Shown piece after piece: positions 18,404 to 21,268 of a stretch of 64,000 nt of DNA (within the stretch, counting starts at the first letter, position 1; each line of letters opens with the position of its first letter). The translations under genes were made by a program, and so were the position numbers. Source of the stretch: Minisyncoccota bacterium (GTDB taxonomy: Archaea > Nanobdellota > Nanobdellia > Pacearchaeales > GW2011-AR1). The notes beneath the pieces are model-generated. The model was given only the letters and a program-made list of their open reading frames with translations, did not search any database and was not told where the DNA came from. The stretch covers positions 233,634 to 297,633 of the forward strand of contig DAOTCN010000001.1 in NCBI GenBank assembly GCA_035453125.1, in the 5' to 3' direction.

Positions 18404-21268
18404 TTACACTTTTAAACTCAACACTTTACTTACACCTTGATTCATGCTAACTCCATACAAGACATTTGCACTTGAGATTACAGAGTCATTATGGCTTATT
18501 ACAAGATACTGACCTGATTTCATGTATTGTTTTAATAGATTTGACAATAGTTCAGAGTTTCTTTTATCAAGTGCTGCATCTATTTCATCAAGTATATAGA
18601 AGCAGTATGGTTTGTATTCTTGTATTGCAAATATTAGTGAAAGTGCAATTAAAGTTTGTTCTCCACCTGATAAAGAAGTTACATCAAAGTATTTTCCTTG
18701 ACTAACTTTAATTGTTATTGAAACTCCACCCTCAAACATATCTTCTTTGTTTTCAATTTCAAGGAAAGCTTTTCCTTTTACACTCAAATGACTAAAATTA
18801 CGTGTAAATAGCTCATTTATTGAATTAAAAGTCTTCATAAACGTCTTTTTCTTTTTAATGTCAATTTCATGGATTATTTTTAGTATTTCATCTCTTTCTT
18901 TTTCAAGCTGTTCAACTTTTTCAGCAATTTTTTCATACTCTTCTTTTATTGAATCATACATTTCAAGAGCTCTAAGATTAACTGAACCAATTTCTGAAAG
19001 AGTTCTTTCACTTTTTTCAAGCCTTTCTTGAAGTGATGCTTTACTTCCTTGAAGAAGTTCTATTTCTCCAAATTCTTTTATTTCGATTTCAAGAGATTCT
19101 TTTGCAGCAGCTATTCCTGCTTGATTGATCTTAAGTAGGTTTATTGATTCTTCAACACGGTTCAAGCCATTCTGTTGATTAACCAGCAAAATATTTTTAT
19201 TTTTTATTTTTTCTTGTATTGAAGTTCTTTCATCAAAAAGCTTATTGAATTTTTCTGAAAGAAGTTTTGAAGCTTTTTCTTTTTCAGAAAGTGATTTTTC
19301 ACTAGCTTTTAGATCAGTTGATAAACGGGCAATTTCATCTTCGATTTCTTTTTTGTCTTTAAATATATTCTTTATTACATTTTTCATATTTTCAAGCTCT
19401 CTTTCCTTATATAAAACAGTTGTATCTAAATTTTCATCTGTTCTCGAAGATAATTCTTGCATTTCAAAAAATAAAGACTGGTATCTTTTCTCAATAACTT
19501 CTTTTTCACTAAGCTTTTTCTCAATTTTATCTCTTGATTCTTGAATTTCAGCTATTTCTTTTTTAATTTGCTCTTCATCAGCCATAATCTTTTTCATTTG
19601 AATTTTTTTATCTTCAATTATGTTTAACTTCATAAGATCTTTTGTTTTTTCACCAAGTTCAGCTTCAAGTGATCTTATCATTGAATTTATTTCATTGCTC
19701 TTATTAAAATATTTTTCAAGTTCAAAGTTTATTGAAGCTATTTCTTCCTGAGATTTTTTTATTCTTTTATCAGAATATGATAAAACATGATTTACATGTT
19801 CTTGAGTTAATTTTGTTTGACATAAGGGACAAATATCGTTTTTAGGCATTCTATTCTTAAGATTCTTGTTTTTTTCAATTTCAGATTCTGATATAGAAAG
19901 TTTTTTATCAAGTTCGGATTTATTCTTAATTATTTCAGATATTGATTTATTCAAATTTTCTATTTGATTTTTTATTTTAATTACTGACTCATTGCATTCT
20001 GAAATTGATTTTGAAGAAATTTCAATTTCAATTTCTTTTATTTGATTAAATATGAATTTTGAATCACCCTGTAATTTTTGAAGATGCTTTTCCCGGTCAA
20101 ATAAACGGTTTCTTAAACTGCTGAACTCGATTTGCATTGTTGAAAATTTATCTCTTTCATCCTGAACCTTCTCAAGTTCTTGCTTCTTTTTTTTAAGATC
20201 TTCCTGACGTTTTGACATTTTAGGAGTTTGTTTTTTAAGTTCTTCAAGTTCTTTCTCAAGCTCTTTTATGTTATTTTCAAGTTCTTTAAATCGAATATTG
20301 TTTTCAGATATTTTCTTTTCAAAATTTTCTTTTCTTGCTTTGTTTGAAGCTATTTTAACATTAAGATCTGTAATTTCTTCATTTAATGTCTCTCTTTCAA
20401 AACCAGTTGTCTTTTGAATATATTGATTTATCTCATTAATCCTATTTTCCATTTGAAGAATTTCAGTATTAATTAACTCTATTTCTTTCTTTATTTTATT
20501 CTTGTAATCTTTGTTTTTTTCAATGTCTTTTTCAAATCTTTCAACTTCTTTTAATTTTTCTTCAATTGTTTTGCTTATTATTGTTGCTTTACACTGTTTT
20601 ACGGTTTGTTCAAGTTCTTTAAATTTTAGTGCTTGTTTTCTTTCATTTTCAAGATTTTTCATATAAATTGTTCTTTCTCTTAAAACAGCTCCAACTTCTT
20701 TTAACTTTTGTTCTGTTTTTTCAATTTCAGAAAGAGCTTTTTGTTTTCTTGACTCATAAATAGAAATGCCTGCAACTTCTTCTATTATCTCTCTTCTTTC
20801 TTCTCCTTTCATTTTGATAAATCTTGCAATTTCTCCCTGAAGAACTATATTAAACCCATTTGGGTCAATTCCAACTTGCGAAAGAAGCTCTAACATTTCC
20901 TGTCTTGTTTTTGTTTCACCATTAATCTTGTATATACTCATTCCATTTTTTCTTACAATTCTTTTTATTGAAACTTCTTCTGGATGATTGGGGAACATTT
21001 TGTCAGAATTGTCAAATACAAGTTCTACAAATGCTTCGTGACATGGTTTTTTTTCTGCACTTCCTTGAAATAATAGATTTGCAGATTTAGCAGCCCTCAT
21101 ACTTTTTATGCTCAATCTTCCAAGAACAAAACATAACGCATCTGAGATATTGCTCTTTCCTGAACCATTTGGACCTATAATTACATTAATCCCAGGATCA
21201 AAAGGAAGTTCTGTTCGAGAAGCAAAACTCTTGAATCCGTGTATCACCAGCTTTTTAATATAACCCAT
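18404..21268 (-). CDS. smc: SMC-family chromosome segregation ATPase, hinge-less, with central CPLC hook motif
   Basis: 954 aa. SMC head motifs are GFKSF, [48 protein letters not shown] and [36 protein letters not shown]. The long coiled coil has [12 protein letters not shown] at aa 480-491. Confidence 0.9.
   Translation of the reverse strand: [954 protein letters not shown]

Follow-up and report, generated by a model that had tools for sequence, protein, structure and literature searches.

Reviews of the SMC superfamily draw a simple line: SMC proteins have a hinge and work with a kleisin, and Rad50 has a hook and works with Mre11 (PMC10586767). The only substitutions of one domain for the other that they cite are engineered. 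Here we describe a gene whose product appears to cross this line in nature. The gene lies at positions 18404-21268, on the minus strand, of a 64,000-nt stretch of archaeal DNA (assembly GCA_035453125.1, contig DAOTCN010000001.1, positions 233,634 to 297,633). This whole stretch is called the window below. The gene encodes an SMC protein of 954 aa that lacks a hinge and has an apex resembling the zinc hook of Rad50.

Several roles have been assigned to the hinge of SMC proteins: it may bind DNA, serve as a gate through which DNA enters, or touch the heads or the kleisin. These roles are still debated. In the hook structure of Pyrococcus furiosus Rad50, four cysteines from two chains bind zinc. 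This arrangement, with the cysteines of both chains on one Zn2+ (structure 1L8D), is reportedly due to the work of Hopfner in 2002.

Previous evidence that a hook can replace a hinge comes from laboratory chimeras only (PMC5344682, PMC6969161). The engineered Smc(Zh) protein, a Bacillus subtilis Smc in which the hook of P. furiosus Rad50 stands in for the hinge, supports growth if the arm length is in register (PMC5344682, Buermann et al. 2017). The same study demonstrated that Smc function depends periodically on arm length, whether the hinge is present or not. A reciprocal chimera of Rad50 with the MukB hinge is functional in fission yeast (PMC6969161).

A CxxC apex is also found in coiled-coil ABC ATPases of the ASRP family (ClsN/coalescin, Sph1/2; PMC9389158) and in many LmuB proteins of Lamassu systems, which are coiled-coil ABC ATPases as well (PMC10586767). 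None of the known hook-bearing ABC ATPases (Rad50/SbcC, ASRP, and many LmuB) has SMC-type heads. Hinge-less SMC variants of marine Actinobacteria branch within SMC and are reported to have no CxxC at all (PMC12153180, Sussfeld et al. 2025). In open-access papers and preprints we came across no report of a zinc hook in a natural SMC; an earlier mention elsewhere is possible. The novelty of the case is an SMC whose defining dimerisation domain was exchanged for that of a sister family.

The window protein resembles the prokaryotic Smc of Smc-ScpAB (Pyrococcus structures 5XEI, 5XNS, and 4I99) in its heads, in all nucleotide-binding motifs, in a joint-like break near the head, in two antiparallel arms, each about 300 aa long, and in its place inside archaeal SMCs. 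It differs from that protein in having a 15-residue CPxC loop instead of the hinge (PF06470) and in the absence of an adjoining scpA gene. By a rough estimate, each of its arm strands is about 15-30 residues shorter than in its nearest hinge-bearing relatives. The likeness to Rad50/SbcC (hook family PF04423; structures 1L8D, 6ZFF, and 5GOX) concerns the apex, a CPxC flanked by antiparallel coiled coil, whereas the heads are not of Rad50 type and no Mre11 gene is adjacent. The Smc(Zh) chimera has the same architecture, i.e., the heads and arms of Smc joined to a Rad50 hook, but it is man-made, while the window family is natural, old, and species-rich. ASRP proteins have the CxxC apex in common with the window protein; however, they are much shorter (the model has 593 positions, the proteins about 600 aa) and their heads are divergent. 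The actinobacterial hinge-less SMCs, like the window family, lie within SMC and lack a hinge, but the window family is archaeal and has an invariant hook.

Heads, apex, and arms of the window protein

A preliminary description of the window, made from the sequence alone, had proposed that this gene encodes a chimera of SMC and Rad50. All of the motifs that it quoted are found in the 954-aa open reading frame (ORF), including the CPLC at residues 480-483. The protein was said to be about 200 aa shorter than typical archaeal SMCs, and it is indeed 180-240 aa shorter than its nearest hinge-bearing relatives (1133-1194 aa). The proposed architecture, with SMC heads, no hinge, and a Rad50-type hook at the apex, agrees with the results given in this section. 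The parts of the gene are as follows; structural features are those of an AlphaFold2 model of the full-length protein.

18404-21268, minus strand: gene of the hook-bearing SMC; 954 aa, ATG start, uninterrupted ORF, stop codon at 18404-18406; SMC_N match over residues 3-947
20768-21268, minus strand: N-terminal half of the ATPase head, aa 1-167; aligns to the Pyrococcus Smc heads 5xei and 5xns; pLDDT 80-91
21152-21175, minus strand: Walker A motif G32-PNGSGKS-39, in the N-terminal head half together with the arginine finger region SMRAAK and the Q-loop residue Q144
19850-20767, minus strand: ascending coiled-coil arm, aa 168-473 (helices assigned by DSSP)
within the ascending arm, minus strand: predicted breaks at aa 203-216 (joint-like), 345-354 (mid-arm discontinuity), and 415-421
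19805-19849, minus strand: apex loop, aa 474-488, with the zinc-hook motif C480-P-L-C483 at nt 19820-19831
19796-19798, minus strand: H491, just past the apex loop, invariant in orthologues
18869-19804, minus strand: descending coiled-coil arm, aa 489 to about 800
within the descending arm, minus strand: predicted breaks at aa 587-588, 609-613, and 732-766 (joint-like)
18407-18868, minus strand: C-terminal half of the ATPase head, aa about 801-954, assigned by alignment to Smc heads
18656-18673, minus strand: signature motif L866-SGGEQ-871
18566-18598, minus strand: Walker B and D-loop, Y891 to residue 901, with the H-loop residue H926 further on

Judged by sequence, the heads are those of an SMC-type ABC ATPase with every catalytic motif intact. 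The Pfam model SMC_N matches with an E-value of 2e-54, and the NCBIfam SMC models TIGR02169 and TIGR02168 score 535.6 and 529.8 bits. The NCBIfam Rad50 models score 67-119.5 bits against cut-offs of 700-1087, which places the heads outside the Rad50 type. The best sequence matches in the PDB are head constructs of Pyrococcus Smc (5xei, 1.6e-99; 5xns, 2.9e-91; 4i99, 2e-82), whereas Rad50 heads reach only about 1e-14. The choice of SMC over Rad50 in the preliminary description is thus upheld by both profile and structure databases. A Foldseek search with the full-length model returned only SMC heads, led by Smc4 and by the head of Pyrococcus Smc with its joint, and was uninformative about the apex.

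The residues K38, R58, Q144, S867, G868, G869, E870, D894, E895, D897, and H926 of the heads are invariant in 102 full-length orthologues (48-73% identity). As all catalytic motifs are invariant, the ATPase is expected to be active. Rad50 proper, SbcC, RecN, ASRP/ClsN, arcadin-4, and Lamassu LmuB were considered as identities of the protein and were ruled out by profile scores. In particular, the ASRP model (NF045487) gives 128.3 bits with an equivalog cut-off of 300, and the arcadin-4, SbcC, and RecN models give 52.6, 46, and 35 bits, respectively.

No hinge was detected in the window protein. The Pfam model SMC_hinge (PF06470) has no match in it even at E <= 1. The same model detects seven of the closest hinge-bearing relatives, short-armed ones included, with E-values from 1e-29 to 1e-35; therefore, the negative result is meaningful. 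A local hinge hidden Markov model (HMM), built from seven verified hinge regions of close relatives, found 102 hinge-bearing representatives in the database scan described below and none of the 30 hook-bearing ones. No representative scanned with it has both a hinge and a hook. Comparison of an apex profile of the family with the hinge alignment by hhalign gave a probability of 0.2%. In the alignment with TIGR02169, residues 3-472 correspond to model positions 1-466 of 1165 and the hinge part of the model is unmatched. The N-terminal arm and a canonical SMC are thus co-linear up to the expected start of the hinge. The AlphaFold2 model contains no globular domain between the two arms. All of these approaches agree with the earlier statement that the hinge is missing.

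Between L344 and E605, the 102 orthologues have four invariant columns, C480, P481, C483, and H491, and no others. The pattern C-P-[LIVM]-C-x7-H occurs in 118 of the 120 best database matches; one of the other two is a fragment, and in the other one the motif is shifted by an intein and was missed by a filter for mid-protein position. It is also present in 79 of 80 GTDB species representatives (for the 80th, the script took a wrong ORF) and, down to 39% identity, in all representatives that are 945-1023 aa long. The CxxC is therefore kept in orthologues.

Taken alone, the 94-aa centre of the window protein has its best PDB match in 1L8D, the hook of P. furiosus Rad50, with an insignificant E-value of 0.16. 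In this alignment the CPLC region is paired with CPVCGRELTDEH. The preliminary description had quoted this hook sequence, and the PDB entry confirms it. With a profile of 54 family fragments, the match becomes significant. Searched against 177,635 PDB sequences, it has as its top three matches 1L8D (5.9e-6), 6ZFF (2.3e-5), and the human Rad50 hook 5GOX (2.6e-3), and the alignments cover 91 of 94 positions. The Pfam model Rad50_zn_hook (PF04423) matches all 54 fragments at E <= 1, the best of them at 1.1e-8.

We compared the score of the P. furiosus hook against the family profile (30.0 bits) with those of 2000 shuffled sequences in which the CPVC was held in place and the composition of each flank was retained. 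The shuffled sequences have a mean of 5.2 ± 4.2 bits and a maximum of 26.5 bits, i.e., none of the 2000 reaches the real score. Thus the resemblance to the Rad50 hook goes beyond a mere CxxC in a coiled coil. The family and P. furiosus Rad50 have in common the motif C-P-[LV]-C-x-x-x-[LI]-T-x-E-H. The AlphaFold2 model of the 94-aa apex (pLDDT 93.5) has 1L8D as its best structural match (TM 0.85, rmsd 2.1 Å over 92 columns), followed by 6ZFF (TM 0.82) and 5GOX. The Foldseek E-values of these matches are weak (0.016-0.23), as expected for helical hairpins. By profile and by predicted fold, the Rad50 zinc hook is the only PDB match of the apex loop with its invariant C-P-x-C...H. Profile matches, Pfam, structure comparison, and the shuffle control all support the label "Rad50-type" that the hook had been given.

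The full-length AlphaFold2 model, built with the 102 orthologues, has a mean pLDDT of 78. The predicted helices on the N-terminal side are 168-202, 217-344, 355-414, and 422-473. They are followed by the loop 474-488 and, past it, by the helices 489-586, 589-608, 614-731, 743-759, and 767-828. The helices form two antiparallel arms, 168-473 and 489 to about 800, of about 306 aa each, close to the near-equal lengths of about 310 and 305 aa claimed before. Only about six inserted residues in total were found within the protein across the orthologues. Conservation islands occur in the descending arm at 601-620 and at F674. Arm length is strictly conserved in the family, and arm geometry is under tight constraint. 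Such nearly indel-free arms fit the dependence of Smc function on arm length that was seen in the B. subtilis chimera (PMC5344682).

Each strand measures 280/282 residues from a common head anchor to the hook. A rough estimate of the strand to the hinge in hinge-bearing relatives is 271-311 residues, based on only five clean cases (P0159, P0165, P0170, P0174, and P0184), as the anchor in the C-terminal head was misplaced in many others. From these values the swap would have removed the hinge and, roughly, 15-30 residues of each adjoining strand. All real length variation in the family comes from C-terminal tails, and the window protein has none. Acidic low-complexity tails of 10-128 aa are found in about half of the orthologues (e.g., P0094, P0088, and P0080).

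Distribution and origin of the family

A HMMER scan of 1.84 billion cluster representatives revealed a clean dichotomy. Proteins of 945-1023 aa match over the full length in a single stretch and have the hook. Proteins from about 1050 aa upward match in two stretches, have no CxxC, and have the hinge. In the sample examined, at least 79 GTDB species carry a hook-bearing SMC.

A neighbour-joining tree of the heads (390 columns, 143 sequences) unites the 30 hook-bearing representatives and four "mini" forms in one clade with a bootstrap support of 95 out of 100. All successive sister groups of this clade are hinge-bearing. According to this tree, hook-bearers share a single evolutionary origin and are nested among hinge-bearing SMCs. 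Named members of the clade are Candidatus Pacearchaeota, Nanoarchaeota, "Woesearchaeota", and "archaeon", and in the hinge-bearing groups next to it they are Woesearchaeota and Nanoarchaeia, with the reservation that NCBI taxon labels are imprecise at this depth. The simplest reading of the tree is that a hinge was replaced by a hook once, in an ancestor of a Pacearchaeota-like lineage within Nanoarchaeia.

The mini forms (P0137, P0139, P0142, and P0144; 779-804 aa) are a third class with neither hinge nor CxxC. The parts of the query to which they align are residues 1 to about 350 and about 606 to 954 (window positions ~20219-21268 and ~18407-19453). Their arms stop at the predicted mid-arm discontinuity (aa 345-354 and 609-613), where an unrelated helix of about 100 aa connects them. 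The position of these forms inside or beside the hook clade suggests repeated secondary loss of the distal arm together with the hook.

Five orthologues of 1307-1490 aa (P0050, P0051, P0096, P0121, and P0131) contain LAGLIDADG-type inteins (PF14528, PF14890). The inteins are inserted at or beside the Walker A motif (query aa ~33-38, window positions ~21155-21172).

A protein identical to the window SMC is present in public databases (P0001, on a 753-kb contig). The sequence is thus not peculiar to this assembly. P0001 is labelled "Candidatus Paceibacterota bacterium", and one orthologous contig (L072) is labelled "Parcubacteria group bacterium". The window has archaeal gene content, with aEF-2 at 3118-5307 and a PACE-CTERM-like S-layer protein at 13368-14591. 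Given this gene content and the fact that all relatives are archaeal (Pacearchaeota), both labels are probably taxonomic mislabels.

Interpretation and alternative explanations

We consider it probable that the gene encodes an SMC of the Smc/condensin type from a Pacearchaeota-like archaeon of the DPANN group, an ancestor of which swapped the hinge and about 15-30 residues of each adjoining strand for a Rad50-type zinc hook. The protein is most likely the SMC of its lineage, dimerised by a Zn(Cys)4 hook of Rad50 type. By analogy with Rad50, two chains would each give Cys480 and Cys483 to one tetrahedral Zn2+, and this zinc would bridge their apices in a constitutive homodimer. The heads, driven by ATP, would engage and disengage and in this way run the usual SMC cycle on chromosomal DNA, with mechanics transmitted by the arms and not by a hinge, and a kleisin encoded elsewhere would close the ring. 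The hook would most probably have come from an archaeal rad50 gene by recombination. Functional engineered chimeras (PMC5344682, PMC6969161) make such a design credible.

With more reserve, we lean towards the view that this is the only SMC complex of a species-rich Pacearchaeota-like lineage, that it is hinge-less with a hook captured from Rad50, and that some descendants dropped the distal arm and the hook. It may be that no second SMC, ScpAB, or Rad50/Mre11 is encoded elsewhere in the genome.

Several points weigh against the interpretation as a zinc-hooked SMC. The window's own apex fragment scores 17 bits with PF04423 (E 0.0053), under the gathering score of 24.3. The SMC scores are below the curated equivalog cut-offs (535.6 against 729.4 bits for TIGR02169, 529.8 against 567.35 bits for TIGR02168), which is expected since a domain is missing. 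The head tree is a neighbour-joining tree of 390 columns with no Rad50 outgroup. The structural models are of monomers only, and zinc binding and dimerisation through the hook are predicted by analogy with Rad50. Neither a kleisin (ScpA) nor ScpB was found among the scanned ORFs of the 64-kb window or in the 10-kb flanks of five orthologues, so that an SMC-kleisin mode of action is assumed. Finally, a second, hinge-bearing SMC or a Rad50 may be encoded elsewhere in the genome, outside the window.

The apex could have arisen independently within the SMC lineage, as a CxxC hairpin cap that converged on the solution found by Rad50. Its motif is short, helical hairpins carry little information (hence the weak Foldseek E-values), the single-sequence PDB match is insignificant, and CxxC apices recur in other SMC-like families (ASRP/ClsN and LmuB). 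However, the likeness to P. furiosus Rad50 goes beyond the CxxC to the longer common motif, the profile alignment extends over 91 of 94 positions and includes human Rad50 among its matches, and no shuffled sequence with the CPVC and the composition kept reaches the real score. We therefore regard convergence as unlikely and a derivation of the hook from Rad50 as the probable origin. If the metal site is considered instead of its origin, the CxxC, perhaps with the histidine, might be an intrachain metal site or a stabiliser of the hairpin turn, in a protein that dimerises via its heads or arms only. His491 is invariant and could be a ligand, the models cover monomers only, and the derived mini forms, which lack the whole apex, suggest that dimerisation at the apex is dispensable. 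Yet two cysteines and one histidine leave a tetrahedral site incomplete, the same histidine is present in P. furiosus Rad50, and the predicted fold can be superposed on the Rad50 hook over 92 columns, all of which makes such a site highly improbable.

It is also conceivable that the protein is a repurposed SMC that acts like Rad50, i.e., as an ATPase that processes DNA ends or damage with a nuclease and not as a chromosome-folding motor. The apex is of Rad50 type, the conserved neighbour of the gene encodes a nucleic-acid enzyme (RNase HII), no kleisin gene is seen nearby, and the window contains metallophosphoesterase genes at 14715-15782 and 33803-34552. But the heads are near those of canonical Smc, including the ScpA-binding regions of 4I99 and 5XNS. 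The nearby phosphoesterase is not Mre11-like, and the SbcD-related one is located beside an Lhr helicase 12.5 kb off. The local absence of a kleisin gene says little, as a hinge-bearing relative has no adjacent kleisin gene either. A Rad50-like role is thus quite unlikely in our opinion. As for an assembly artefact or a decaying pseudogene with a deleted hinge, nothing speaks in its favour and its probability is negligible: the ORF is intact, the identical protein P0001 is public, the same motif is present in 118 non-identical clusters and 79 GTDB species, arm length is conserved, and the catalytic residues are invariant. The concern about a deletion in the assembly, raised in the preliminary description, is answered by the recurrence of the nearly indel-free architecture on independent contigs, of which there are well over a hundred, from many samples.

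That at least 79 species have kept a hook-bearing SMC whose hook residues are invariant and whose arms are free of indels indicates that the swap is evolutionarily stable. A natural hook SMC points to arm geometry as the constrained feature, and it would provide a dated case in which two branches of the SMC superfamily exchanged a domain. If the hook SMC is indeed the sole, hinge-less SMC of these archaea, the hinge is dispensable for SMC function in vivo. Nature would then have performed both the Smc(Zh) and the mini-Smc experiments, and the textbook distinction of SMC, with hinge and kleisin, from Rad50, with hook and nuclease, would be blurred. The family is a tractable system for testing what the hinge is for. 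Hook SMCs are also ready material for biochemistry, e.g., for studies of zinc-dependent dimerisation, hinge-free loop extrusion, and ring opening that can be reversed with chelators. In annotation they are easily overlooked: they score under the NCBIfam equivalog cut-offs, and their Pfam architecture hides the hook.

Genomic context

The following features lie upstream of the gene.

21290-21297, minus strand: TATA-like octamer TTTAAATA, 29-22 nt upstream of the ATG; candidate archaeal promoter, weak evidence
21631-22380, minus strand: RNase HII gene rnhB (PF01351, E 4e-44), upstream neighbour on the same strand

The preliminary description had assigned the gene its own TATA box. The octamer is present at -29 to -22, but it is only weak evidence for a separate promoter, since the G+C content is 25-30% throughout the window and octamers of the TTTAAATA class occur at 0.38 per kb per strand in this AT-rich sequence (27% GC). 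RNase HII is the one conserved neighbour. Its gene precedes smc on the same strand in the window and in the orthologous loci L001, L003, L006, and L007, and it is within 3 kb upstream on the same strand in 49 of the 71 GTDB loci (set L008-L087) that have enough upstream sequence. Consequently, co-transcription of rnhB and smc is possible. The conserved pair has no obvious functional explanation.

Neither ScpA, ScpB, Mre11, nor Rad50 was found among the scanned ORFs of the window, in line with the earlier observation that none of these genes is adjacent. The scan covered 38 of the 43 other ORFs of at least 150 aa (all those of 150-400 aa) and four shorter neighbours. The same four proteins were not found within 10 kb of five orthologues, and the one hinge-bearing relative examined likewise has no adjacent kleisin gene.

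Of the two phosphoesterase genes mentioned above, the one at 14715-15782 (minus strand), 2.6 kb from smc, encodes a calcineurin-like metallophosphoesterase of 355 aa. Mre11 was rejected as its identity, as it has neither a match to Mre11/SbcD profiles nor a sequence relative in the PDB. The one at 33803-34552 (minus strand) encodes an SbcD-related archaeal phosphoesterase (TIGR00024, 118.5 bits). It follows the gene of an Lhr-type helicase of 861 aa with DEAD, WH_Lhr, and DEAD_assoc domains, at 34599-37184 (minus strand). The region 33803-37184 looks like an Lhr-MPE repair pair; Lhr-MPE operons are a known separate pairing.

Four ORFs that flank smc, of 147, 142, 142, and 357 aa (17092-18394 on the plus strand and 22907-23980 on the minus strand), have no NCBIfam match, and that of 357 aa has no Pfam match either. 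A SET-domain protein of 180 aa (PF00856, 4.7e-16) is encoded at 49093-49635 on the minus strand of the window. A SET-domain gene is also present in the orthologous locus L001 (21754-22260), where it lies within 10 kb of smc.

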